Below are positions 2,604-62,672 of a DNA stretch of 64,000 nt, one piece after another (position 1 is the stretch's first letter; each line of letters starts with the position of its first letter). This DNA comes from Naegleria gruberi (taxonomy: Eukaryota), in the NCBI GenBank assembly GCA_000004985.1, contig GG738848.1. The stretch is one strand, 5' to 3'. Both the position numbers and the translations under genes were made by a program. The notes under the pieces are model-generated. The model was given only the letters and a program-made list of their open reading frames with translations. It made no database searches and had not been told where the DNA came from.

Positions 2604-2998
2604 TAACTTGTTCCATTATATTTCAATTAAGCTTTTGTTGAATTCAATCACTAATCCTGAGATTCGCCAATGGTGCTTTGATTGAGTTTAGTTTAAAATG
2701 GTTAAAAAAAGACTACAGCACCACAGGTTCCCAAGTTGTCTCCAACCTCAGTACTGATGTGGCTCGACGATACTTAACTTCTCAAATCGGACGGGATGAG
2801 GTGCATTCATCGTTAATTATTTCAATGTAGTTCGAGCCATTTCCTATCTATAAATCTTAATCTTGAATAAGAAAATGATCTGGACTTACAACAGCTCAAC
2901 ACTGGTTTTTGGCTCATTGCTATAAAACGTACTTAAATATAGTTTAATAATTTTTATGAAGAATGCGTTGTTACAATTTTTATGATATTTAAAAAAAA

Positions 2999-4240
2999 AT
3001 GAGCAAACGAAAAAGACAAGATTTTGAAAATCATCATCGCTTAATTAATTCGGAGGAAATATTCACTAACAATTTTAATAATAATATGGAAGAGAAAGCA
3101 AAAAAGAGTGTGAAATTCCAACAAGAAGAAATATTTTCAGATGATGTTTGTTTTGAAATAATCTCCATGATTGATGATTCATGGTTTATTTTAAATAATT
3201 GTTGTTTAATTTCAAAACAATTCTTTAATGTGATCAAGGAACGTTCAAAACTTGTTATTCAATTTAACAAAAAATTTACAGAGAAACGAGTTGAATTATG
3301 CATGAAAAGTCAATTCATGAATAGTATTGTTAATCTTAAAGTTTCTCGTTGGTTGCTTGACTCTGTAGACCAACTCAAATTCATAAGTGAAATGAAACAA
3401 TTAACATCACTCGATATATATAGCAATCGAATTGGTGTAGAAGGAGTTAAATATATAAGTGAAATGAAACAATTAACATCACTTAATATTTCTGAAATTG
3501 AAATTAGTGATGAAGGAGCCAAATATATAAGTGAAATGAAACAATTAACATCACTTTATATACATAATAACGAAATTGGTGATGAAGGATCCAAACACAT
3601 AAGTGAAATGAAACAATTAACATCACTTAATATTGGTTGTAATGAAATTAGTGATGAAGGAGCTAAACATATAAGTGAAATGAACCAATTGATATCGCTT
3701 AGTATTGGTTACAATCGAATTGGTGATGAAGGATTCAAATATATAAGTGAAATGAAACAATTAACATCACTCGATATTACTGACGATGAAATTGGTGATG
3801 AAGGAGCTAAATATATCAGTGAAATGAAACAATTAACATCACTAAATATTGGTTTTAATGAAATTGGTGATGAAGGAGCCAAATACATCAGCGAATTGAA
3901 ACAATTAACATCACTTGATATTTCTGAAACTGAAATTAGTGATGAAGGAGCCAAATATATAAGTGAAATGAAACAATTGATATGGCTTACTATTGGTTAT
4001 AATGAAATTAGTGACAAAGGAGCTAAATACATCAGCGAACTGAAACAATTAACATCACTCGATATTACTGACAATAAAATTGGTAATGAAGGAGCCAAAT
4101 ATATAAGTGAAATGAACCAATTGATATCGCTTAATATTGGTTACAATCGAATTGGTGATGAAGGAGCCAAATATATAAGTGAAATGAAACAATTGACATC
4201 ACTAAGACAAATCAGTTTAGGATTTTACTGTAATAATTGA
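2999..4240 (+). CDS. F-box-like / leucine-rich-repeat protein (RNI-type 24-residue LRRs, ~12 units)
   Basis: 413-aa ORF. The N-terminal segment CFEIISMIDDSWFILNNCCLISKQFF is F-box-like. Tandem 24-aa units follow, with consensus ISEMKQLTSLdIsdNeIGDEGAKY. The paralog at 11446 is about 93% identical over the N-terminal 120 aa. Confidence 0.7.
   Translation: MSKRKRQDFENHHRLINSEEIFTNNFNNNMEEKAKKSVKFQQEEIFSDDVCFEIISMIDDSWFILNNCCLISKQFFNVIKERSKLVIQFNKKFTEKRVELCMKSQFMNSIVNLKVSRWLLDSVDQLKFISEMKQLTSLDIYSNRIGVEGVKYISEMKQLTSLNISEIEISDEGAKYISEMKQLTSLYIHNNEIGDEGSKHISEMKQLTSLNIGCNEISDEGAKHISEMNQLISLSIGYNRIGDEGFKYISEMKQLTSLDITDDEIGDEGAKYISEMKQLTSLNIGFNEIGDEGAKYISELKQLTSLDISETEISDEGAKYISEMKQLIWLTIGYNEISDKGAKYISELKQLTSLDITDNKIGNEGAKYISEMNQLISLNIGYNRIGDEGAKYISEMKQLTSLRQISLGFYCNN
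3376..4210 (+). repeat. In-frame 72-bp tandem repeat array (LRR-coding), about 12 units
   Basis: Direct 72-nt periodicity (ataagtgaaatgaaacaattaacatcact...). The open antisense frames across it are periodicity artefacts. Confidence 0.85.
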
Positions 4241-4378
4241 TAACCCAAATGTTAAAAGTTTGCATATGGTTGGGTGGGCTTAATAACAAGAAATAGTATT
4301 GGCTTAATGGAATGAGGTGCATTCATCATGATAAAGCCGTAGCCATTTCATACCTTAAAATAATAATCAGTAATTAAA

Positions 4379-6280
4379 TTAAACTTTATAGAGAACTTCC
4401 TTAATGTCAACATGTTGATGTTGTTTACAATTATCGTATAGTGTTTTGAAAATCTTGTGTTTCTCAATTGCAATATCGAAATTCTTCTTTTGAGCTCGAC
4501 TGATTGCTTCCTTCAGTCCAGTATCAATCATGGTTGCAAATTTCTTCCTGGCCATATCCCATCCAATACTTGTGGCCATAATTCCACTCAGATTAATCAT
4601 TCTAAAATCAATATATCTCGTACTATTATTATCAATCTTTTGTAATAACCTAGCTCCAATCATTGGCAATCTTGTTCTAGAATCTCCACTATCGTATGAT
4701 TTCATCAATAGGAGACATTCTGTTATTTCACCACCAACGAATGATGCCTGACTTGAGAGTACCATGTCGAGGGCTCGTTTAGGGAATAAAGAAATCTCAA
4801 AATCTGATGAAAGAGTGGCAATTGAATATTTCTGTTGTGAGCTAGTCATGTTAATGGGCTCACTCTGGTTGAAGGTCACATTCTTCAACACTGACGATAA
4901 GTGATCATCAGTGTGTAGTGCCTTGACACATTCCTCCAGAGAATTCTCCAATTTACCAACCATTTTAAAAGTCTTTGATTCCAAATGTCCAACTGTATAA
5001 TCTGCCTTTGTGGACCATTGCATTAATTTTCCTCGATTCTTAATAGTTGGATACCAATCTGGAGAAAATTCCTTAGTGAGATAATTAATGGCCTTCCAAT
5101 CTGAATCAATTACAAATTTTACACTCAAATCCTCGGCTGAGAATCGATGGTCCTTCTCTGCATGCTTGAATAAATCTCTCTTCTTTAACAGAATGTGAAG
5201 GGCAGAGGAGGGCAATTTCTTTGGTTCCAGATTCGTCTTGATCCACTTGTTAATGAATTTTTCTTCATCCACCTGGAAAATATTAAACCAATCCTCCAAA
5301 TCATGCAAAAACATTTGAATAATGATTTGAATCTCATCCAACATTCCAATACCAATCAATTTATCATTTGGATCAGTATGGAGTGGAATTTCAATGTTTT
5401 TCGAATAGCATTCGTGTTGTTTCTTTAAAAAACTTTCCAATCTTTCATGTGAAAACAATTTTGCAGTTCTATTCTTTAAATGCATGATTAAACTTGTCAG
5501 GAAATGGAAAGGATTGCCTTCTCCTCCAGTATTTATACTAATTTCTATATTACTTGTAGGAATTTCCAATTCTAACAATAAATCTCTGCAAAATTCATCA
5601 ATCATTTCCATTACCACTTGTCGTGATGTGACAGTTGACTTGATTTTCAATGAACTTGCATCCATAAACTTGATAAGAAACAACACCTTAGCTCTAGCTT
5701 CTAGTTCATACTCAAAACTTTGCAAATATTTGAAAAATTGTTCTCGCATTTCTTCTAACGGAGGTAAATGTTTGAATTCTCCATAAGATTTTGAAGATTT
5801 TGAAGATTTTGTTGATTTTGTTGATTTTGCTGTGGAACTTCCATGGGAATGTGCTGAATTAGTTGATAAATTATCATCGGGAAGGTATTGGTCGTGATGG
5901 TTGTGATGGTGTCCATCAGAAAGTGCACTGGTTGACAATGGACTCGAGCTGATGGGATGATGGTTGGCAGTTCTGTCAAAATCATCGACTCCTTCAATAT
6001 TTATCTTGATTTGCTCTTCACTACTAGTAGAAAATGTAAAATCTGCATGTAAACTATAGGATTTAAAGTGTGAGCCTTGTCCATTCGAATAGGAGCCATC
6101 AAATAAACTAGACGAAACAGGAGAAGTTGACAAGAATGAAGTAGACGAAACCGGAGAACTTCCACCTGCAAAATGTGATGGAGAAAGACCCCTCGGTGAA
6201 TGTTGTGAACCATTCAAAGATGACAATCCTTTGTGTGAATCCACAACCGCTAGAAAATTGACAGGTAATTGTACTGACAT
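4379..6280 (-). CDS. Ser-rich hypothetical protein, C-terminal ~220 aa possibly a START/Bet v1-like lipid-binding fold
   Basis: 633-aa ORF on the minus strand. Low-complexity Ser/His N-terminal half (KSTKSTKSSKSS is encoded by a 9-bp repeat at about 5790-5830). The C-terminal region shows the W..G...PKRA(L)D...SSQASF..G...C pattern. The START call is tentative. Confidence 0.5.
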   Translation of the reverse strand: MSVQLPVNFLAVVDSHKGLSSLNGSQHSPRGLSPSHFAGGSSPVSSTSFLSTSPVSSSLFDGSYSNGQGSHFKSYSLHADFTFSTSSEEQIKINIEGVDDFDRTANHHPISSSPLSTSALSDGHHHNHHDQYLPDDNLSTNSAHSHGSSTAKSTKSTKSSKSSKSYGEFKHLPPLEEMREQFFKYLQSFEYELEARAKVLFLIKFMDASSLKIKSTVTSRQVVMEMIDEFCRDLLLELEIPTSNIEISINTGGEGNPFHFLTSLIMHLKNRTAKLFSHERLESFLKKQHECYSKNIEIPLHTDPNDKLIGIGMLDEIQIIIQMFLHDLEDWFNIFQVDEEKFINKWIKTNLEPKKLPSSALHILLKKRDLFKHAEKDHRFSAEDLSVKFVIDSDWKAINYLTKEFSPDWYPTIKNRGKLMQWSTKADYTVGHLESKTFKMVGKLENSLEECVKALHTDDHLSSVLKNVTFNQSEPINMTSSQQKYSIATLSSDFEISLFPKRALDMVLSSQASFVGGEITECLLLMKSYDSGDSRTRLPMIGARLLQKIDNNSTRYIDFRMINLSGIMATSIGWDMARKKFATMIDTGLKEAISRAQKKNFDIAIEKHKIFKTLYDNCKQHQHVDIKEVLYKV

Positions 6281-6803
6281 TTTTTTTTGAATAATTACTG
6301 ACAGTTATTCAACGGAAACAACCCAAAATGCAAGTAAATAACAAGGGCAATCCTTCAGTTTTGTAATTTCTTCAAATTTCGTTTTCAAACTAGGAAGAAT
6401 TGGTTTCCAAAATGTTTACAAATTTTTTGAGAATCGTTGCCATAAAAAATTTTAACAAAAATCTGAAAAATTTTGTTGTTTATCAATTAATTTTAGTATT
6501 AATTGCACTCGCGTGAGAAGATGATTCACTCAATCGATATTATTATTAAGGTGCAATTCTTACAGAGATCTTTAGTTTGTTTTTATGTTTATGTTTCGTT
6601 TCAATGAAGATGGAATGACTGGAACAATCTTTGAATTGTGGAACAAGTTACTTTGATTTCGAATATTAGACAGTTCAGTAAGTGGTGTGCCTTAGATTTT
6701 TGTCTGTGATTCATGAACTTGGTTTCAAAGTTATGTCAACGTCAAGTGTCTAATCAAAAAAAATACTTCAGTTGCTCCTTCATAATATTCATAATAAAAA
6801 AAC

Positions 6804-8422
6804 ATGGGCAATAAACTCATCATATCCCAGTCGGGTTCGTTCTCTCTGGATTCATCTACTTCATCTCTGCAAGCTTTCTATCAACAACCACTTGGCCGAA
6901 ACTTGAGACGAAACTCGACCGAAATACAAGCATCTCCTTCATCTCCAACAAAAAGAACGTCATCAAAGGGACCACTCAGTGCTGGATCAACATCCCTGAA
7001 TGATGTAGTATTCGAAAGATCTTCCTCACCAACTACAAACCCTCAGGATTATAACATTTTATTAGACGAAAGTTCAGAACCTGTAAAGAAGAGAATGAAC
7101 GTCATCATGTTAGGAACAGGAGGAAGTGCCAAAACCACAGTTTTAAAACAATTCAAATGTAAGTATTATTCCTTTTCTTTACAAGGTAATAATTTAAATT
7201 ATTTTACAAAATATTTAACATGTTTAATATAATTATAATATATTTAAAAAAATATTTACAAACAAAAAATCAATATCATTGAAAATAGTATTGGGAGGTA
7301 AAAGAGAAGATCTTACACAATCACTCTGGCAAGAAGGAATTGTCGTTCCATGTTTCGATTTGTTGATTGCCATTTTCAATCGAAAGAATTTCTATTATCC
7401 AAATGCAGAATATCATCACGAAGAATCTGATGAAGTTGAACAGCAAGTATTCGATCTGTTCGATCAAAAGAAGATTCTCAACATTATTCATCCGAATAAT
7501 CAGAAATTGATTGAGGAAATTGCTGAAATGTGGAACAATGAACCAATTTTGAGAAAGGTCTGTACGGAAATGCTTTTGGAAAATCAAGTGGAATCGGTTC
7601 CGGTTGAGGATGTGAATTATTATTTTTCCAGAGCTGTTGCAGTTCATCGGGGAGATAAACCATCGGATAAGGATTTGTTAATTTCACAAAGAAAGACAAC
7701 TGGTGTTACACATGTTGAATTTGCATTTAATAATGGTTCTACTTTGGTTAATATTTGGGATTGTGGTAAGTGAAATCATATTTTTGATTGTAAAATGTGA
7801 AATTTTGTGTAAATTTATGAATAATAATATAGGTGGTCAGAAAAATGAAAGAAAGAAGTGGAAATACATGTTTACCGAATCTCAAAAGTTAACAGGAAAG
7901 ATCTTTGTCATTTATTTCGTAGCTCTTTCAGAATATAATCAATTGTGCTACGAAGACGAAACCACCAACCGAACTCACGAATCTTTGAAAATTTTCGAGA
8001 GTGTTGCCAATAATCCAGAGTATGAGAATTATCCTCTCTTCCTCATCTTTACAAAGAAGGACATTTTCAAACAAAAATTGAGATATACCAGTTTATCTGT
8101 CTGTTTTGAAGATTGTCCAGAAGATTTGAAAGCTAACGAAGACACTACCAAGATAAAGAGAGATATCATTAACAATTGGACTGGATTTTTAGAGGATAGA
8201 CAATGTGTCTCTGATGAAATTTATGAAAAATCATTTGATTTTGTCAAGAGAAAATTTATGGAGCGAATTTCCAATGCCGATCGCAGAAAACAAACTGAAA
8301 AGAATATCAAGGTTGTGAATGCAATGGATGCTGATGATGTGAGAAGTAATCTTGTTGAAGAATTATTGGAACAAACAATGGTGGAAGAAATATATAAGGA
8401 TGATTTGGTTCATTATCTTTAA
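6804..8422 (+). CDS. Heterotrimeric G-protein alpha subunit, 3 exons (6804..7158, 7289..7765, 7833..8422)
   Basis: Exon 1 ends ...GTGGSAKTTVLKQFK, a P-loop-like segment, followed by a GTAAGT donor at 7159. Exon 2 carries RKTTGVTHVEFAFNNGSTLVNIWDCG(G), matching the switch I/II signature R.KTTGI...DVGGQ. Exon 3 starts GQKNERKKW and continues with ...ALSEYNQ..EDETTNR.HESL..F... and FTKKD (NKxD) and VVNAMDADD (TCAxDT). Splice sites GTAAGT/AG join the ORF frames cleanly. MG at the N-terminus. Confidence 0.8.
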
Positions 8423-8448: not shown

Positions 8449-9619
8449 ATTGTAATATTTATTAACGTCTCTTGTATCGTAAAGACCTGAGAGACGAGGT
8501 CTACAACCAGTAAGTTTCGGTTCAGCGTTTAAGTGTTATGGGTTGACGCTAAGTGGTTGGTTAGACTGAGCCTGCCTGTGGTAGGCAGAGAGGTATTTCC
8601 TGTTAATAGTGAAGCTTGCATTGGGACGGTTGTACCACACTGAGTTCTTGTAGCAATTTTCCAAATAAATAGCTAGTGCTTTGTAGACTTCTAGGGCCAC
8701 ATTCTTAGGTATTCTTTTGCGCTTAGACCAGTTAAGCCAGTCATTACGGGAGCAACGACCATCAAATTCTATCCTAAGTTGAGAGGATTCTGAGATATCA
8801 GGAGGGAAACGAATCTTGTTAAGGCTAAATTTCTGGGAGATAGCGTCCCATGTGGCATACAGTTCATCCTTTTCAGGATTGCATTTGGGACAAGTTTGGA
8901 ATACGTGGGTCCAATCTTCCTTGACATTACATTTGTCACAAATACTGTCGTTACCTAGTAAAATTGAGTGGTGGAGATTAAAGTAGAGGAGTCTTTGCTG
9001 ATAATAAGACAAGAGAGAGTTTCTCCAGAAGGAGAGAGTGCTATTATGCCAATTATAGTCATTGTCTAATTGGCCCAACTTATTAATAATTTTCTTGGAT
9101 CGCTGAGTTTCAATGATAGCATTTCTAAGGTTGGAGACAGGCTTGTGATTGGTACGGTTACACAAGACCCATCCATTATCTGTGGATTTGAAGTAATATT
9201 TCAGATCTTTCATTGTAGCGGCAGCATTTTTCCACAGTGAATCTGTAGTTTCACCCTTGAGCGCCTTATTTATCATGGCTCTTGCGATTTTGGGTGATAG
9301 GAGAGGTAGAATTGACAAACCTACAGACAGATGCCATCCTTTCCACGTGACTTATATCAACTGGAGATGAAAGTCCAAGTCCACCCTGGGATTTATCACC
9401 ATATATAACGGCTTTAGAGAGCCTGTTGTCACATCCAATTCTTTTCTTAATAATTCCACTAATTTTGACTTCCAATTTTTCCAATAGTGAAAGTGGAATA
9501 GCATCTACGCTTGAGAGGTATCTAGGTACAGAAAGCACCTTAGATAATATTACGTTCCTCATTGGACCGAAACAACTTTTAAGAGAACCTTATCATCGGA
9601 GGGAGACCAAGACATGTTA
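8449..9619 (-). mobile_element. 5'-truncated, frameshifted non-LTR (LINE-like) retrotransposon remnant: 3' part of ORF2 (post-RT GGLGL region plus C-terminal CCHC zinc knuckle)
   Basis: The minus-strand ORFs 9266..9562 and 8536..9318 overlap in different frames (decay). Motifs: ...KRIGCDNRLSKAVIYGDKSQGGLGL... (conserved K..GGLG box after the RT core of non-LTR elements) and CDKCNVKEDWTHVFQTCPKC (C..C...ET..H.F..CP knuckle typical of the CR1/L1-like ORF2 C-terminus). Local GC is higher than surrounding DNA. Flanked by perfect 22-bp direct repeats. No poly(A) tail. Confidence 0.65.
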
Positions 9620-10309: not shown

Positions 10310-11445
10310 TTAAGAAGTCTATCATTTATGAAACATTAAAAATGAATCAACAAGACGTTAAGAAGAAAAACATTCAATACACAAAAACATACAGAGAACG
10401 AAAACGTATCAAGAAGGTTGTAAAAGAGACTATGAAGATATTAGCAAAAATGTAACAAAGGAACAATTATTAACTGGAAATTTGAAATTGGAAATAGATG
10501 AATCAAATTTGAAATCTGGACAACAAGAAGTAATTTTTCATGAGCAAGTGAGTTTCAGTTTTGGAGAATTGGGAGGATTTGATTTAAATGACAATAGTAG
10601 TAGTATTGTTGACGAATCAACAATGTATAAGGGGTAGGCGGTGAATGTTGTTACAGCAATAACAATTATTCTCTTTATTATTGTATTTTGCGAGATTGCA
10701 ACATCAAAGATTGGATTGTTATTGAAATTATTAGGAGAATTGCTTTCCAAAGATCATTTATTATGTAAAACTAAAGATGCTCTGTTGAAATATGTGCTCA
10801 ACTTTGGCAAAATGGCAAAGGTATTTAATTCTACGACTAATCGATAAGAATCATGTAAGTATTTAAATTAATTAATTTATTGATATCTTTAGGATTTCCG
10901 TATTAATACATCCCTTTCAGATTTGGTGGTCAAGACTGTTTCAGGGAACATTGCTAGTGTCAAATCAATGGATTTTTCACTTAAATCAATCTCAATATGC
11001 TTTTACTAGCAGTGGAAAGTAAGTGGTTTCATGGCTAAATTGCAACTAATATTTTAGAAGTGTAATAATCACAAGTTTTATTGAGAAGAACAATACTGTA
11101 TTTGCTATTTTGGATAATTATGTGGATGGGAAATTTACTCACACTTTCACGGAGCCAATTACTAACCTCAAAGACCTCACATTTTCATTTGTTGATTCAT
11201 TTGGTCTTGGTCATTTTTCCAACCATTCCATTCTGCTAAGTTGACTCTTAATAAAAGTTTAGGTTATGATTGTAAAAAATTCAAGTCCTCAATTTATTGC
11301 AAATCAACCCCTCACTTTTTCAAAAAGCCAGGTCTGGATTTGATAAAAACCACTGTTCAGATAGTGGTACCTGATTTTACCCCTCGATTTTTTGCAAACT
11401 ACCACTTATTTCCGTCATTAGGGAATTTTGATATTTTAGAAAAAA

Positions 11446-12672
11446 ATGAGCAAACGAAATAGACAAGATTTTGAAAATTATCATCAATTTATTAATTCGG
11501 AGGAAATATTCACTAACAATTTTAATATTATGGAAGAGAAGGCAAAAAAGAGTGTGAAATTCCAACAAGAAATATTTTCAGATGATGTTTGTTTTGAAAT
11601 AATTTCCATGATTGATGATTCATGGTTTATTTTAAATAATTGTTGTTTAATTTCAAAACAATTCTTTAATGTGATCAAGGAACGTTCAAAACTTGTTATT
11701 CAATTTAACAAAAAATTTACAAAGAAACGAGTTCAATTATTCATGAAAAGTCAATTCATGAATAGTATTGTTAATCTTAAAGTTTCTCGCCGGTTACTTG
11801 ACTCTTTAGAACAACCCAAATTCATAAGTGAAATGAAACAATTAACATCACTTAATATTTCTGACAATCAAATTGGCTTAGAAGGAGCCAAATACATCAG
11901 TGAAATGACACAATTAACATCACTTGATATTAGTGTAAATCGAATTGGTGTTGAAGGAGCTAAATTCATAAGTGAAATGAAACAATTAACATCACTTGAT
12001 ATTAGTGTAAATCGAATTGGTGTTGAAGGAGTTAAATTCATAAGCGAAATGAAACAATTAACATCACTTGATATTTCTGACAATCAAATTGGCTTAGAAG
12101 GATCCAAATACATCAGTGAAATGACACAATTAACATCACTTGATATTAGTGTAAATCGAATTGGTGTTGAAGGAGCTAAATTCATAAGTGAAATGAAACA
12201 ATTAACATCACTTAATATTAGTGTAAATCGAATTGGTGTTGAAGGAGTTAAATTCATAAGTGAAATGAAACAATTAACATCACTTGATATTTCTGACAAT
12301 CAAATTGGCTTAGGAGCCAAATACATAAGTGAAATGACACAATTAACATCACTTGATATTTCTGTAAATCGAATTGGTGATGAAGGAGCTAAATTCATAA
12401 GTGAAATGAAACAATTAACATCACTTGATATTTGTGACAATCAAATTGGTGTTGAAGGAGCCAAATTCATAAGCGAAATGACACAATTAACATCACTTGT
12501 TATTACTAGCAATCGAATTGGTGTTGAAGGAGCTAAATTCATAAGTGAAATGAAACAATTAACATCACTTGATATTTCTGGCAATCGAATTGGTGATGAA
12601 GGAGTTAAATTCATAAGTGAAATGAAACAATTAACATCACTTAATATTAGTGTAAATCGAATTGGTGGATGA
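11446..12672 (+). CDS. F-box-like / LRR protein, paralog of 2999..4240
   Basis: 408-aa ORF with the same F-box-like N-terminus and 72-bp LRR units (ISEMKQLTSLDISVNRIGVEGAKF). The stop TGA arises within a repeat unit (attggtgGatgaagg versus the canonical attggtgatgaagg). Confidence 0.65.
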   Translation: MSKRNRQDFENYHQFINSEEIFTNNFNIMEEKAKKSVKFQQEIFSDDVCFEIISMIDDSWFILNNCCLISKQFFNVIKERSKLVIQFNKKFTKKRVQLFMKSQFMNSIVNLKVSRRLLDSLEQPKFISEMKQLTSLNISDNQIGLEGAKYISEMTQLTSLDISVNRIGVEGAKFISEMKQLTSLDISVNRIGVEGVKFISEMKQLTSLDISDNQIGLEGSKYISEMTQLTSLDISVNRIGVEGAKFISEMKQLTSLNISVNRIGVEGVKFISEMKQLTSLDISDNQIGLGAKYISEMTQLTSLDISVNRIGDEGAKFISEMKQLTSLDICDNQIGVEGAKFISEMTQLTSLVITSNRIGVEGAKFISEMKQLTSLDISGNRIGDEGVKFISEMKQLTSLNISVNRIGG

Positions 12673-13137
12673 AGGAGTTAAATTCATAAGTGAAATGAAA
12701 CAATTAACATCACTTAATATTTCTGACAATCAAATTGGCGTAGAAGGAGCCAAATACCTCAGTGAAATGACACAATTAACATCACTTGATATTTCTGACA
12801 ATCAAATTGGCTTAGAAGGAGCCAAATACATAAGTGAAATGAAACAATTAACATCACTTGATATTTCTGCAATCGAATTGGTGATGAAGGAGCTAAATTC
12901 ATAAGCGAAATGAAACAATTAACATCACTTAATATTAGTGTAAATCGAATTGGTGGAGAAGGAGCCAAATACATCAGTGAAATGAAACAATTAACATCAC
13001 TTAATATTATGACAATCGAAATTGGTGACAAGGAGCCAAATACATAAGTGAAATGAAACAATTAACATCACTTCATATTACTAGCAATCAAATTGGCGTA
13101 GAAGGAGCCAAATACATAAGTGAAATGAAACAATTAT
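12673..13137 (+). pseudogene. Out-of-frame degenerate LRR repeat units (~6.5 x 72 bp) trailing the F-box/LRR gene
   Basis: Repeat units remain recognisable but carry several 1-3 nt indels (12662-12672, ~12870, ~13010) that break the frame. Either a decayed part of the array or assembly errors in a repetitive stretch. Confidence 0.5.
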
Positions 13138-13671
13138 TGTAGTTTAATAAAACTATTTTTTGATTGATTGAGATGGAAAATAATAGATTTAATAGAATCG
13201 ATCCATATCTAGAAACCTCATTGAACTGAGCTTGAAACTTTGGCTTTGATTTCTTTTGTTTCATTAAGCTTAGAAATAGTTTTTTCAAATTGCTTCTTTT
13301 ACCTTCTTGAATCATCCCTTGGTTGGATGTCATTACAGGGAGTGCCTTAGCAATCACCTTATCGGTATTACCTAGTTGGCATCAGTGGCGATGGCATCGA
13401 TAGGTTTAATTAAATTTGAAAGTGGTTGAATTTTCCTTACAATTTCGACCTCTAGATTTGTTTATCCAGGGCTATCATCCTCGTTCTAAGAAATCAAAGT
13501 TTAGATGAACAGCCAAGCATAATATCAATTTTTACAAAATATGAAACTTGCCAATTTCGAAGGAATGGGTATTCTGATAATCTTCTATCTAGAATGAACC
13601 AATGACAAGAAAATACCTATTTATTGTTTCAATTAAACCAACATTAAACCAACTACTGGTTTGCAACTCAT

Positions 13672-48961: not shown

Positions 48962-50468
48962 TTAATATTTTTCATGTAATTCTTGGAAGTGTGTTTCGGT
49001 TTTCTTCCTATTCAAGAAAACTAGTAAAATACACACCACAATACACAATGCAATCAAAGATAGAATAAATAATACACCAACAGCAATAATTGGCTTCAAT
49101 GTAAATAAATAATCAACTGGAGCAGTACTGAATTGAAAGTTTCCACCTTTTGAGAATACTACATAGTATTGAGTTGCTTCTCCTGAAAAGAGATAGAGAT
49201 TAGTTGAATTTACATGATAGTCATAATTGAAAAATTGATTTCTTTCAATATTCCAAGTGATTGGTTTCTTTCCAATATAAACATCTTGAATTGTTGCTGT
49301 ATTTTCAATTCTGATTTCAAAATATGTTTGAGGTTGAGTGGTGAAAGTTGCTGTGAATGGTGCGGAATTATCACTTTGAATTGAGTATGTTTGTCCAATT
49401 TCAAGTTTAGTATAATTAAAACTAATCTTTTTAGCATAAAACAAATTATATACAGCACTGGGTGGAGAAATTGTGAATGAATAATCTGGATTTCTATTGG
49501 AGATGACTTGTTGTGTAAGATTTGATTGAACAATGGCTACCATTTCTTGATTTGAATTTGAGAATTGCCACACTGATTGAACTGGATCATTAGATTTCAA
49601 CTCTTGAGCTATCAATGAAATGCAACCATAATTTTGATAGAAATGATCTTCTTTCACACTTTCAATTGAATTCCATTCATTTACCAAACAATTCCCAATA
49701 TAAAATAAAACATTTCGTTGCTGAATAGGATTCAGTTTCAACACCAAATTAGGTTGTCCATAAACGNNNNNNNNNNNNNNNNNNNNNNNNNNNNNNNNNN
49801 NNNNNNNNNNNNNNNNCTGATTTCATTCTGGGAATGTTAAATTTGCAAAATCCACATTAATTTCCATAACTTTTCCCCATTCAACTGGTTTTGTTTCTCC
49901 ATATGGACAAGCAAGTTTAGATTTTCCAGAAAATCCATAATTGATAACACCACCTTCTTTTGATTCACCAGTGAATGTGAGAGTTGGTCTTTCAGCAGCA
50001 GTGAAATCACATGTTAAAGAAATAGACAATGCTCTTGTAACTCCATCAGTAGCAGGAATACCAGCATGGAAGACCTTTACACCAGCACTTTCATCTGCAG
50101 GATTGAGCAATGAAAGTTTAGGAGTACCTTTCTTACCGATAGGATAGCAGAGATTGTATTGTTTAGCATATAGATATCCTTGAGCGTCAACAGTACAAAC
50201 AGCATTGCTTGGATTGGTAACTCCTCCACAAATATTGCTAAAATTCCAACTAATTAGTTTCCGATAATAATAAACAAAATACATACAAATAAAAGTTGAA
50301 ATTAGCATCGGTTGCTGCAACTTTATATCCTGAACCAGGAATATCAATATTAGAAAGGTCGATAATTCCTCTATAAGCAATTGGTAATGAACAAGTCGGT
50401 GCGGAGAATACAACATGCACACAACAAGCAAGCAGCAATGTGAGCAACACAAAGGTCAATCGTAACAT
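48962..50468 (-). CDS. MRH-like type I membrane glycoprotein, paralog A (exon 1 50287..50468; exon 2 50237 down to 48962, interrupted by the N-run 49757..49816 and a 1-nt indel next to it)
   Basis: Signal peptide MLRLTFVLLTLLLACCVHVVFSA and GTATGT/TTTTAG intron as in paralog B. Cys-rich N-terminal domain ending ...GKSKLACPY (MRH-like). C-terminal TM plus cytoplasmic tail. The stretches 49210-49533 and 51077-51400 are near-identical. Confidence 0.5.
49757..49816. other. Scaffold gap (60 N)
   Basis: Run of n. Homology with paralog B shows the flanks are essentially contiguous (B has ...gaaatcag|tttatgg...). Confidence 0.95.
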
Positions 50469-56805: not shown

Positions 56806-58791
56806 ATGATCAGAAAGAAGGTTCGTAGAAATCCTGCCTCCGGTGATGGAGCACAATCTCTCGAGGAATTGAATAGGATCAGAAAGGAACAATACTTGAA
56901 GAAGAAGGCCATGCTTCAAGATTTGGTCAATGCACAAAAAAAGGACATTCCGATCCAGTATATTATCCTGATCAAACAATATGAAGATGAAACATTTGAT
57001 GAAATTTATGTAGCCCTTGATCCGATGCTACATATATTTAGTTTTTTAAGTCCACATGATTTATTGCTCAAGGTTGGATTGGTTTGTAAATCTTGGTATT
57101 TCCTTTCTTTTAGAACCAATTTCCTTTGGCAATCTTTGTATTATAAAGAATTTGGAGATGTACAAGCAAGACCTATTCATACTGCTCTCCTTGATGAAGA
57201 TGATGACTCTGAATTTGATGGACATTGGAAGAAGGTGTTCAGTTTTAGAGTGGATTTGAGAAACAAATGGTACAATAATTCACCAGACAGAGTTGGTTAT
57301 TGTGATATTATGGAGAGTGAAATTGTAAAAAGTACAAGAACTAAATACACCAATAAGGGAGAACTTTTCAGAAAGGATGCACACACAGCTTGTGTTGGAG
57401 AGGATGAAATTGGAACAGAGTCAGAAAATAAGAAATTGTACAGAGTTAATCCAGAGGACAGATCGACCATCACTACAATGTGTTTGATTGGATCAGATCG
57501 TTTATTGGCAGGTGATGCTAGAGGCGTCATTAAATTGTTCAACTTGCGATCTTTCCAACAAGTGAAAAAGTTTGTTGGAGCTCATCAAACCAGTGTACAC
57601 AAAATTGTTGCTATCACTCCTGAACACTTGAAATTCAAATCGGATGACATGTCAGTTTTGGGATATTCATTCAAACTTGAAGCAACACATCATTACTTCT
57701 TATCTAATGATTTCCAAAACAATTCTATTTGTGTTTGGGATTTGGAGACTGGTTTGCTATTGAAGAGATTTAGAGGAACTGACAAGGTTCACTCTGTATC
57801 TGGATCATCCACACACCTGAATGGAACTGTATTAGATATGAGAATTTGTACTATTAATGAGTATGGACCTGTACTCTTTGTAATTACACCAAAGAATGTA
57901 GAAATTTATGAACTCAACACTTTAAGATTATTGAAATTATATAGACCTTTCTATGAGCCAAAGAAGCATGAAATTGTCACCAAGAAACTCATTGATGCTG
58001 CCATTGAATCCTTTGATAAGGATGACATTGAAGTAGAGCAGGAGGAAGAAGAGGCTGATGATAATTTTGATGATGATACTGGTATGAATCAACCATCAAA
58101 AACTTTGGTTTGTTTTGAATTGTTAGATGGAAATACATTTGCCTTTGTCAGTGGTGATATGAAACTCTATGTGTACAATTTGAGTAATGGTATTTGTGTC
58201 AAGAAAATGGACATGAAGCATACTAAGATGCTTGACATTGATAATTACAATAGGCCAACTTCCATTGATTCCTTCAAGAAGAAGTATAACAAATTCAAAG
58301 AGTCTGACGTGCTCATCACGCAAATAGCCAAGACCAATTTGGAGGGTCAAATTGCTTTGGTATTGAGCTTGAGACCATCAGGTTATAATGGGTATGATCC
58401 ACTCAAATCCTACATCAAGTACTTTGATTATAGATTTGGTTGTGAGAATCCTGTGAGGTCATGTCAAGTCGGAAATTATGACTATTACTCTTCTGGTAAA
58501 ATCTTCTTTGATGACGATAAGATTATTCAATGCACTCAGAGTCATATTCAATTATTGGGACGTTGGGATGGTACTTTGAAACAAGAATTGTTGCCAACTC
58601 TCAATGTTGGATATTATACGATTGCCAACTTTATTGCAGATGATCGTTTCCTAATTATGGGTACATCCTTTGGTGGTATTGTTGTGAATGATTATGGAGG
58701 AAATTTATTGTATTGGAGTGATTTGAAGGGTAGAAAACTTGTGGATGATGAACCAAAAGAGGAGGATAAAATGGATGATTCTCAAGATTAA
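56806..58791 (+). CDS. F-box / WD40-repeat protein
   Basis: 661-aa ORF. F-box LDPMLHIFSFLSPHDLLLKVGLVCKSWYFLS. Downstream WD-like repeats (...GDARGVIKLFNL..., ...ICVWDLETG...). Confidence 0.65.
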   Translation: MIRKKVRRNPASGDGAQSLEELNRIRKEQYLKKKAMLQDLVNAQKKDIPIQYIILIKQYEDETFDEIYVALDPMLHIFSFLSPHDLLLKVGLVCKSWYFLSFRTNFLWQSLYYKEFGDVQARPIHTALLDEDDDSEFDGHWKKVFSFRVDLRNKWYNNSPDRVGYCDIMESEIVKSTRTKYTNKGELFRKDAHTACVGEDEIGTESENKKLYRVNPEDRSTITTMCLIGSDRLLAGDARGVIKLFNLRSFQQVKKFVGAHQTSVHKIVAITPEHLKFKSDDMSVLGYSFKLEATHHYFLSNDFQNNSICVWDLETGLLLKRFRGTDKVHSVSGSSTHLNGTVLDMRICTINEYGPVLFVITPKNVEIYELNTLRLLKLYRPFYEPKKHEIVTKKLIDAAIESFDKDDIEVEQEEEEADDNFDDDTGMNQPSKTLVCFELLDGNTFAFVSGDMKLYVYNLSNGICVKKMDMKHTKMLDIDNYNRPTSIDSFKKKYNKFKESDVLITQIAKTNLEGQIALVLSLRPSGYNGYDPLKSYIKYFDYRFGCENPVRSCQVGNYDYYSSGKIFFDDDKIIQCTQSHIQLLGRWDGTLKQELLPTLNVGYYTIANFIADDRFLIMGTSFGGIVVNDYGGNLLYWSDLKGRKLVDDEPKEEDKMDDSQD

Positions 58792-60358: not shown

Positions 60359-62672
60359 ATGACGAACATGGTTACACCCATGCATCACTCGATGGATCAA
60401 TTTGCGTTTGATGAAGATCCCTCGCTTAATGATTCGCAGCGGAAGAAGAGAAAGATATCGGCAAGAAAGGTGCTTAGTTTGCGGAATATTATCATTACAC
60501 TGATAGCTTTATTTATGGTGATTATTGCGTTTGTAGTGTGGATTATAGGATTCACAGCTAGTAATTCATCAACTCGTTTGTTGAGTGAGAGGCTGAAGGA
60601 GAGTTCTTCCGAGAGAGTAGTAGTAATGATTGAGAGTATGTTCTATCAGGCGCAGGATTTGGCTCTCACATTCAAGAATTTCTATGATCAACAATCCGAT
60701 TACATGTCCAACTTTTTTGTAAATAGGACAATATATGAAAGAGCAGTCAAATCCATGTTGTTTTCCTCACTCATAACTAGGCAATCTGCAATGAATTCTG
60801 TTAATTTTGTTTTTAACACTGGTCATATTGTTGGATGGGAGTGCTATAACTTGGGTTGCAATTATATAATTTCGAGAGAGAGCGATTTAACCATGATGGC
60901 TTACAATTACGATTTTAAGGCAGGTAAGCTCAAAGATACTACAGTATATCAAGTACCTGGATTCAATGCTGCCACTATTATTCCAACATACAAGGTGGTT
61001 ACAGATCCAATTTACAAAAATAGTACGGTGAGAGGAACTGGAATGTTTTTCCCAATTAGTAGACATGTTGTTTTCGTGGATACCTACGTTACATCGATTG
61101 CACTTCCGTACTATGATACGGATGAAAAGTTGGTAGGTGCTGCCAACGTTGTATTTTATACTGACACACTGAATAGTAAGGTCAGAGAAGCTAATCCTTC
61201 ACAAGAGGGTTACATTATAGTTATCGAGGATAGTGGTGTGATTGTTGCTCACTCATTTGCTAATCAGACAGCCATTATGGAAAAACCATGTTATTTAGAA
61301 GGAAATGCAGCAGTGAAATCATTATGTTCCTATTTTTTTCCACCAAATGTAACTACCATTAGTTCTAGATTCCCTAGTAGTACTCAAAAATTTTCTTTGG
61401 ATGGTTTGTCAATTCAAAGAACTGAAACATCGTTCCCTGGTGTAAAGTGGCATATTTTCATTGCCATTCCAGATAAGGAAATATTAGGTGATATTGTAGT
61501 GCAGTCGTATAATACCATTTGGATCTCTGCACTTGTATTGGTACTTGCAATTATAGTCTCTGTTCTGACAACCTTCTCACTGATGAGAACTCTTTCACAA
61601 TTGGCCAGGTGTTTCGATGCTATTCGTAACTTGGATTTGGATGCATCCACCATTGTTAAAGCCACTTCAGGAAGAACCTATGTTTATGAATTGGGAGAAT
61701 TACAAAACAATTTCAAGAGTATGATTGTTACCCTTAAATCTATTAGAAAGTTTGTTCCAGTCCAAATCATTAAAAAGATTCTCATCACTGGCAAGGAAGC
61801 ATCACTGGGTATTCAAGATGCTGATGCAACTATCTTTTTCCTTGATATTGCTGGATTTACCACTCTTTCAGAAAAGATGGAACCAAAGGCTTTGGTAGAT
61901 ATGATTTGTTCTGTATTTGAAACTTGTTCTCAGGCAATTTCAAGACGTGATGGTGTTATTGACAAGTTTATTGGTGATGCAGGTATGTACATATTAATTC
62001 ATGTATTTATTTATAATTATATTAGTTATGGCATTGTGGAATGTTCCAACTAAAACTCCAGATCACGAATATCATGCCATTCAAGCAGCCATTGAAATTC
62101 AAACAGAAATGGAAAAGAAGAATATACCAATTCGTATAGGAATCCATAGTGGTCGTGTAAAAGCTGGTAATATTGGAAGTGTTGATAGATTTAGCTTTAG
62201 TGTCGTTGGAGATGGGGCCAATTTAGCCAGTAGATTAGAAGGTGCCAACAAGGCTTACTCTTCAAAGATTATTTGTAGTAGTAGTACAATGGAGGTTGCT
62301 CTCATTAGTGAGGAACGATTAGTTCTTCATGATCCAAATATAAATCGACTCATGTATAGAAGATTAGATAAATTGAAAGTGAAAGGTAAAGAACAACCAG
62401 TATTGACCTACCAAGTCTTTCTCTCAAGCCATCCAAAACATACCAATGATTTAGACGCAAGAGATGTTAAACTCTACGAAAAGGCTTTTGATTTGTTGAT
62501 GAAAAATCAATATAAGGAAGCTCTTGCAATATTTTATACTCTCATAGATAAGGCTCCTAAAGATGTTGTTTTGGAAAAGAAGATTGAGTTGTGCAAATCT
62601 TTAGTTGAGAATGGTGGTTTTTATGATGATGGAAAGAAGTTTGATGGCTCTATTGAATTTACTGAGAAGTAA
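60359..62672 (+). CDS. Receptor-type class III adenylate/guanylate cyclase with extracellular Cache-like sensor domain, 2 exons (60359..61982, 62026..62672)
   Basis: TM1 (IITLIALFMVIIAFVVWIIGF), about 330-aa extracellular domain with a Cache-like signature (...ALPYYDTDEKLVGAANVVFYTD...GYIIVIEDSGVIVAHS), TM2, then cyclase DATIFFLDIAGFTTLSEKMEP...KFIGDA|(43-nt GTATGT...TTAG intron)|VMALWNVP...IGIHSGRVKAGNIGSVDRFSFSVVGDGANLASRLEG. Splicing restores the GDAVMA motif. Confidence 0.8.

Follow-up and report, generated by a model that had tools for sequence, protein, structure and literature searches.

A stop codon inside the repeat array of an F-box-like/LRR gene of Naegleria gruberi: possible recent truncation or consensus error

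Why does a gene of Naegleria gruberi end in the middle of a repeat unit when further units follow its stop codon? The question arose from a sequence-only reading of a 64-kb stretch of contig GG738848.1 (64,000 nucleotides), which we call the window. It contains two paralogs, denoted copy 1 and copy 2, that had been described as F-box/LRR genes. The stop of copy 2 had been ascribed either to the recent truncation of a longer LRR array or to indels mis-called in the assembly, and both alternatives survive the analysis reported here, with the evidence leaning to truncation. The two genes and the parts of copy 2 are located as follows.

2999 to 4240, + strand: copy 1, the intact paralog; 413 aa, 11.5 units and an ordinary non-repeat tail
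11424 to 11445, + strand: upstream segment of about 22 bp common to both copies, where the homology of the paralogs begins
11446 to 12672, + strand: copy 2 ORF as assembled; 408 aa and TGA at 12670-12672, with an N-terminal module and 12 LRR units
11572 to 11700, + strand: F-box-like motif of copy 2, aa 43-85, EIFSDDVCFEIISMIDDSWFILNNCCLISKQFFNVIKERSKL, based on family-profile evidence
11816 to 13136, + strand: tandem array of 72-bp (24-codon) LRR units; 18.4 copies by TRF (score 1812)

Six long ORFs of the window were exact matches to annotated proteins of N. gruberi NEG-M (NAEGRDRAFT_78219, _56856, _62815, _46042, _78224 and _78227), all of them on one 712,659-bp scaffold. The GC content is 33.8%, and stop-free stretches of at least 200 codons cover 45.8 kb. 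The sole N gap of the window is 50 N long (49767-49816), and a gap check of the whole window found none near copy 2. The NEG-M draft assembly is built from Sanger reads (PMC9928731 Table 1), and NEG-M is a heterozygous diploid according to PMC9928731. While the flanking genes match the public N. gruberi protein set exactly, copy 1 and copy 2 are both absent from it, and both F-box-like/LRR paralogs appear to be unannotated genes. Between them lies a G-protein alpha subunit gene (6804-8422, + strand) in three ORF pieces (6804-7232, 7279-7773 and 7703-8422), presumably split by two short introns. On the - strand at 8536-9562, the ORFs 8536-9318 and 9266-9562 overlap in different frames with no Pfam match; the former has a C-x2-C…H-x4-C-like motif, and the region may be a decayed mobile-element fragment. 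Elsewhere in the window, the ORFs 60359-62053 and 62001-62672 (60359-62672, + strand) share about 50 bp and lie in different frames, which could be due to a short intron or another frameshift, and a separate F-box-annotated gene, NAEGRDRAFT_78227 (661 aa; UniProt name 'F-box domain-containing protein'), is located at 56806-58791 (+ strand).

As had been read, copy 2 ends prematurely, with its TGA inside ATTGGTGGATGAAGG. Unit borders in the array were set by anchoring on the conserved AGYGAAATGA, which gave 18 units, all of 72 bp except units 7 (69), 12 (73), 15 (71) and 17 (71). The earlier estimates of about 18 units in copy 2, post-stop ones included, and about 12 in copy 1 agree with the anchored and TRF counts, and the stretch of array past the stop, put before at about 465 bp, measured about 470 bp or 6.3 units. 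That all other units read attggtgatgaagg does not hold for copy 2, in which ATTGGTGATGAAGG occurs in merely three of the 18 units (at 12373, 12589 and 12877); other types are ATTGGTGTTGAAGG (six units), ATTGGCTTAGAAGG (three), ATTGGCGTAGAAGG (two) and ATTGGTGGAGAAGG (one), and IGVEG and IGLEG units predominate. The array also has a higher-order period of 216 bp (TRF score 2004). In a unit distance matrix, units 2 and 5 were identical, units 3 and 6 were one base apart and units 1 and 4 three bases apart, so that units 1-3 and 4-6 are copies of a 216-bp block at 98% identity (4 of 216 positions differ). Considering this near-identity, a three-unit block was duplicated very recently, in line with the earlier proposal that the arrays evolve through gain and loss of units. 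The units at or behind the stop also include some with near-twins upstream (13 with 1, 15 with 11, 12 with 6). When read off-frame, each unit contains three or five stops, and therefore any +/-1 shift terminates translation at once.

The deviations from the 72-bp length and the path of the LRR frame through the 3' part of the array were assigned as follows.

12259 to 12327, + strand: unit 7, 69 bp; in-frame 3-bp deletion after 12313, giving IGLGAKY instead of IGLEGAKY
12616 to 12688, + strand: unit 12, 73 bp; longer by one base (a G at 12667/12668 or a T at 12670), which gives TGA at 12670-12672
12673 to 12869, + strand: 3' part of unit 12 to 5' part of unit 15; LRR codons in frame +1 relative to the ATG, untranslated as assembled (ORF 12662 to 12904)
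12833 to 12903, + strand: unit 15, 71 bp; a base is missing between 12869 and 12870 (TCTG^CAAT), and the LRR frame is back to 0
12976 to 13046, + strand: unit 17, 71 bp; net -1 from three events: loss of a base after 13009, gain of one in the A-run 13019-13021, loss of one near 13029/13030
13047 to 13142, + strand: unit 18, partial unit 19 and TAG at 13140-13142 (…ISEMKQLL*), read in frame +2 by three-frame translation

In unit 12, whose nearest unit is unit 6 with two differences, the extra base turns …ATT GGT G?? GAA GG… into ATT GGT GGA TGA. A single inserted G had been blamed; one extra base is indeed present, but its identity is ambiguous, since GGTGATGAAGG with a G inserted and the unit-16-type GGTGGAGAAGG with a T inserted would both account for the motif. 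The LRR frame then runs in the order 0, +1, 0, +2, with +1 over 12668-12869, 0 until unit 17 and +2 to the TAG at 13140-13142, which is presumed to be the ancestral stop. Six units thus follow the stop as described, but about two of them are back in frame 0 and not out of frame. Further indels had been placed near 12870 and 13010; the first corresponds to the base missing in unit 15, but the second is best explained by three events in unit 17 instead of one. The in-frame deletion of unit 7 lies beyond that account. Five single-base edits restored a stop-free ORF to the terminal TAG, in which the added units were perfectly LRR-like; its length is 565 aa where about 570 aa had been predicted.

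Copy 1 aligned with copy 2 over 2975-4203 and 11424-12641 at 85.4% identity (blastn). Since the homology covers the CDS and about 22 bp only and the outer flanks are unrelated, a segmental duplication of the whole locus was ruled out. Decayed units were looked for past the copy 1 stop and none were present. The N-terminal regions of the two copies differ in length at two places, each by one codon. The proteins closest to copy 2 are N. gruberi 'predicted proteins' encoded on other scaffolds (70-82% identity), and the family, in which an F-box-like module is joined to LRR units of 24 residues, is restricted to Naegleria. Two annotated paralogs on other NEG-M scaffolds have unusual ends: P0002 ends with TIVLVMKEPSS*, an off-frame reading of DNRIGDEGAKFI, and P0001 with DNPNW*, an off-frame reading of DNQIGD. 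Arrays terminated by frameshifts therefore seem to recur in the family.

We favour, at even confidence, a real and recent frameshift that truncated copy 2 and left a still-usable 408-aa product. Tandem duplications, of units as well as three-unit (216-bp) blocks, would have enlarged the array to about 18 units, after which a one-base insertion in unit 12 would have made the TGA. The outcome would be a 12-unit protein of the size of the intact neighbouring paralog (408 versus 413 aa), and the six units past the stop would have turned into untranslated 3' sequence and begun to decay neutrally, with four more one-base indels, few private substitutions and no nonsense substitutions yet. With so little decay, the truncation should be young. 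All five frame-breaking indels occur at or after the first stop of copy 2, and the sole indel within the translated array, that of unit 7, keeps the frame at 3 bp. By chance, all four later indels would be confined to the last 474 of 1696 bp with a probability of 0.006, which rises to 0.078 when unit 17 is taken as a single event. Private substitutions numbered four in 432 bp downstream of the stop and two in 792 bp upstream, a difference that is not significant (Fisher p=0.19), and none of the 144 post-stop codons carries a nonsense substitution. Copy 2 shows the pattern of a fossil 3' coding region, in which a stop is caused by an indel relative to homologous units and homologous codons continue behind it in other frames.

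For an independent copy of the locus, we performed exact-protein look-ups of the 408-, 413-, 80- and 45-aa ORFs and the flanking genes, which found no other assembly. A homolog search with the 703-aa downstream neighbour led back to NEG-M and otherwise only to orthologs of N. lovaniensis and N. fowleri at 62% identity, and scans of JGI metagenomes with the array/flank junction and the unit core gave no matches. The ENA metagenome ERZ929261 (run ERR1078381, PRJEB11402) contains an N. gruberi-like organism with 98.9% DNA identity to NEG-M, and one of its Illumina contigs, L001, aligns to window 4222-6528 at that identity; NAEGRDRAFT_56856 differs at 3 of 633 residues. Compared with NEG-M, the 1902 bp of coding sequence in L001 had eight substitutions and no indels, while about 405 bp of noncoding sequence had about seven substitutions and about five indels. 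An indel:substitution ratio near 1:1 is accordingly natural here, and the five indels and four private substitutions in the ~470 bp past the copy 2 stop look like ordinary neutral divergence. Three Illumina-assembled LRR-family members from the environmental relative (L002-L004) have short diverged arrays with ordinary tails and speak neither for nor against recurrent frameshifting.

The main alternative is an artefact of assembly or consensus, in which case the true gene is the continuous, 18-unit frame of about 565 aa; we regard this as a serious possibility, though a tentative one. It could have arisen by stacking reads from different unit types, from paralogous arrays or from two haplotypes of a diploid, or from low-quality read ends. 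What keeps it serious is the position of the indels. All six array indels, the in-frame one included, lie at or beside the 17 of 72 columns that separate unit types (unit columns 34-39, 44 and 51-57), for which the chance is about 0.5^6 = 0.016 with one-column tolerance, and this is unexpected under random neutral indels. The coincidence may reflect either consensus errors or a hotspot of mutation or conversion. In addition, the coexisting variants GGTGATGAAGG and GGTGGAGAAGG merge exactly into the GGTGGATGAAGG of unit 12, and AATCGAATTGG and AATCAAATTGG likewise into the AATCGAAATTGG of unit 17, as mis-stacked or heterozygous reads could yield; the single-base deletions in units 15 and 17, however, cannot come from merging variants that differ by single substitutions. 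Unit 17 has its three indels within 22 bp, which resembles poor-quality sequence. The ease with which five edits give a perfect ORF without nonsense codons, the high homogenisation of the array (identical units 2 and 5, the 216-bp block repeat) and the heterozygous diploid state described for NEG-M also suit an artefact, and the annotated paralogs that end off-frame could reflect a systematic assembly problem. On the other hand, a platform with homopolymer errors was ruled out since the assembly is a Sanger one (PMC9928731), and Sanger chemistry is not prone to such indels. No gap is present near the locus and long ORFs are intact elsewhere in the window. Errors that are blind to the frame would not be expected to spare the first 1220 bp of +/-1 indels and to place five in the last 474 bp. 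Finally, the affected units are those nearest to the unique 3' flank; as units 12-18 lie within about 470 bp of it, Sanger reads could probably have anchored them.

Returning to truncation, the leaning towards it rests on the indels clustered past the stop, the in-frame indel upstream, the product length equal to that of the paralog, the similar neutral spectrum in the environmental relative and the Sanger platform. While the anatomy of the locus, its family placement and the spread of its indels are shown directly, we infer that the indels are biological and that the 408-aa product is still functional. If the frameshifts are real, the whole locus might instead be a dead pseudogene, whose 408-aa ORF is unexpressed or non-functional and intact through youth only, which we consider unlikely. 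Copy 2 has no EST-backed model for expression, being unannotated in the public gene set, but copy 1 is likewise unannotated and the missing annotation says little. The N-terminal regions of the two copies gave dS 0.073, dN 0.041 and a dN/dS of 0.56, from only 17 differences, which suggests weak constraint, and the protein ends mid-unit (…NRIGG*), unlike natural ends in the family. Against this, the upstream 1224 bp have no stop or +/-1 indel, the sole indel there is in-frame, the F-box-like core does not differ between the two copies and the product is as long as the intact paralog.

It is highly improbable that the silent post-stop units serve as a standing reservoir, from which slippage, unequal exchange or gene conversion between units at the hypervariable columns would switch array length and surface residues on and off, as in contingency-type loci but in a free-living eukaryote, though the indels at type-separating columns and the paralogs apparently ending off-frame are compatible with it. 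Least credible of all is a bypass of the stop, by a +1 ribosomal shift at GGA-UGA-A or by an intron that removes the damaged units: skipping the U of UGA would restore the LRR frame exactly, reading IGG-EGVKF (the unit 16 motif) and adding 77 aa to 12904, and GT and AG dinucleotides occur in every unit, but the site (GGT GGA TGA AGG) is none of the known +1 shift sites such as UCC-UGA-U or CUU-AGG-C and offers neither a shift-prone heptamer or stop context nor a single shift to a complete product, the next two frame changes (12869/70 and unit 17) would each require a rescue of their own, and GTAAAT recurs in many in-frame units, so that no specific splice site is marked.

Whichever way copy 2 came to its stop, the label of an F-box protein needed examination. 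Pfam searches of the copy 1 and copy 2 proteins matched LRR models and no F-box model, and neither F-box (PF00646) nor F-box-like (PF12937) matched the copy 2 protein, even when the N-terminal part was searched by itself with a cut-off of E<=10. With residues 1-126 as the query, HMMER run exhaustively over 1.84 billion representative proteins yielded 20 proteins only at E<=0.001, and a word-indexed search with the N-terminal module returned one protein only. Among 21 homologs of the module, ten matched the Pfam F-box-like model, with a best E of 2.8e-5, below the gathering score. A first family profile that included linker residues matched nothing meaningful in the PDB. When a profile of FSDDVCFEIISMIDD…LISKQFFNVIKE from 15 family members was compared with all PDB sequences, it gave eight matches, all of them F-box proteins aligned inside the F-box; FBXO42 was the best (E=0.0015), followed by beta-TrCP1, beta-TrCP2, COI1, TIR1 and FBXO44. 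In the AlphaFold2 model, residues 48-54 and 59-80 are helical with a pLDDT of only 50-71, and residues 1-45 are disordered. The earlier F-box label is thus supported at the level of the family profile, but not by a Pfam match of the copy 2 protein, and 'F-box-like/LRR' is a fair name for the family rather than for the copy 2 sequence by itself. Members of the family probably serve SCF-type ubiquitin ligases as substrate receptors, and the copy 2 product would be expected to bind Skp1.

If the frameshift is real, copy 2 is a very young case of shortening in a tandem-repeat protein, whose discarded repeats can still be read. If it is an artefact, copy 2 draws attention to a type of consensus error that affects homogenised repeat arrays in the NEG-M reference, and such errors would also account for oddly truncated gene models of paralogs. 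In either case, two unannotated genes are added to the N. gruberi catalogue, and a Naegleria-restricted F-box-like family with 24-residue LRR units is documented, the nearest solved relative of which is a Ralstonia GALA effector. Neither outcome alters the understanding of such proteins or arrays, and the value lies mainly in annotation and quality control. Taken all together, the copy 2 stop is an ordinary gene truncation or a draft consensus error, and no new kind of system.

The repeats place copy 2 among known LRR proteins. Its units have the LxxLxLxxNxIGxEG core and the 72-bp period of the 24-residue RNI-like/GALA-type LRR; Pfam LRR_6 matched copy 2 with E=1.1e-55, and further LRR models matched both copies. 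The AlphaFold2 model of the 408-aa product is a regular beta/alpha solenoid with a mean pLDDT of 85.4 and a pLDDT above 90 in the repeats. In a Foldseek search, the best structural match was the LRR domain of Ralstonia RipG4 (PDB 9j7j; E=9e-20, 30% identity, rmsd 2.8 Å), followed by Legionella LegL1, ribonuclease inhibitors, NLRPs and FBXL2-SKP1. The nearest relatives of the array outside Naegleria include proteins of Pandoraea, Ralstonia (GALA/RipG) and Legionella (LegL1, PDB 4xa9) at 29-47% identity, and these bacterial relatives would fit what is known of eukaryote-like F-box/LRR proteins that amoebae and their associated bacteria have in common.

The FBXL receptors (FBXL2-SKP1, PDB 6o60; FBXL17-SKP1, 6w66) resemble copy 2 in that an F-box-like helix motif at the N-terminus leads directly into an alpha/beta LRR solenoid, and the copy 2 model aligned with FBXL2 over 390 columns (TMq 0.68). 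The LRR units of FBXL proteins, however, are cysteine-containing and about 26 residues long, compared with 24 in copy 2, which also, unlike these receptors, reaches no Pfam F-box threshold and has a rare N-terminal module (20 of 1.84 billion proteins). The Ralstonia GALA/RipG type III effectors share with copy 2 the architecture of an F-box or F-box-like part plus 24-residue LRRs, with equal unit length, and GALA proteins were among the sequence-search matches to copy 2 (29% identity); RipG proteins are secreted effectors of bacteria, whereas copy 2 is a nuclear gene of a eukaryote and lacks a secretion context. In the LGR proteins of Protochlamydia amoebophila, LRR arrays grow by adjacent concatenation and a three-LRR block is triplicated (PMC2216083). 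The block duplication in copy 2 matches this concatenation model for bacterial LRR arrays (PMC2216083), as both show tandem duplication of single units and of three-unit blocks. The LGR units are, in contrast, bacterial, 28 residues long and kept in frame, while the copy 2 array also has frame-breaking indels. Large F-box and LRR families, as in plants and nematodes, undergo birth-and-death evolution, and many of their members are truncated or pseudogenised. The Naegleria family is similar in being lineage-specific and multi-copy, with dispersed paralogs of which some annotated ends look frameshifted. Compared with the typical remnants of birth and death, the remnant units of copy 2 are still nearly intact and follow the new stop directly, and the event, if real, would therefore be very recent.
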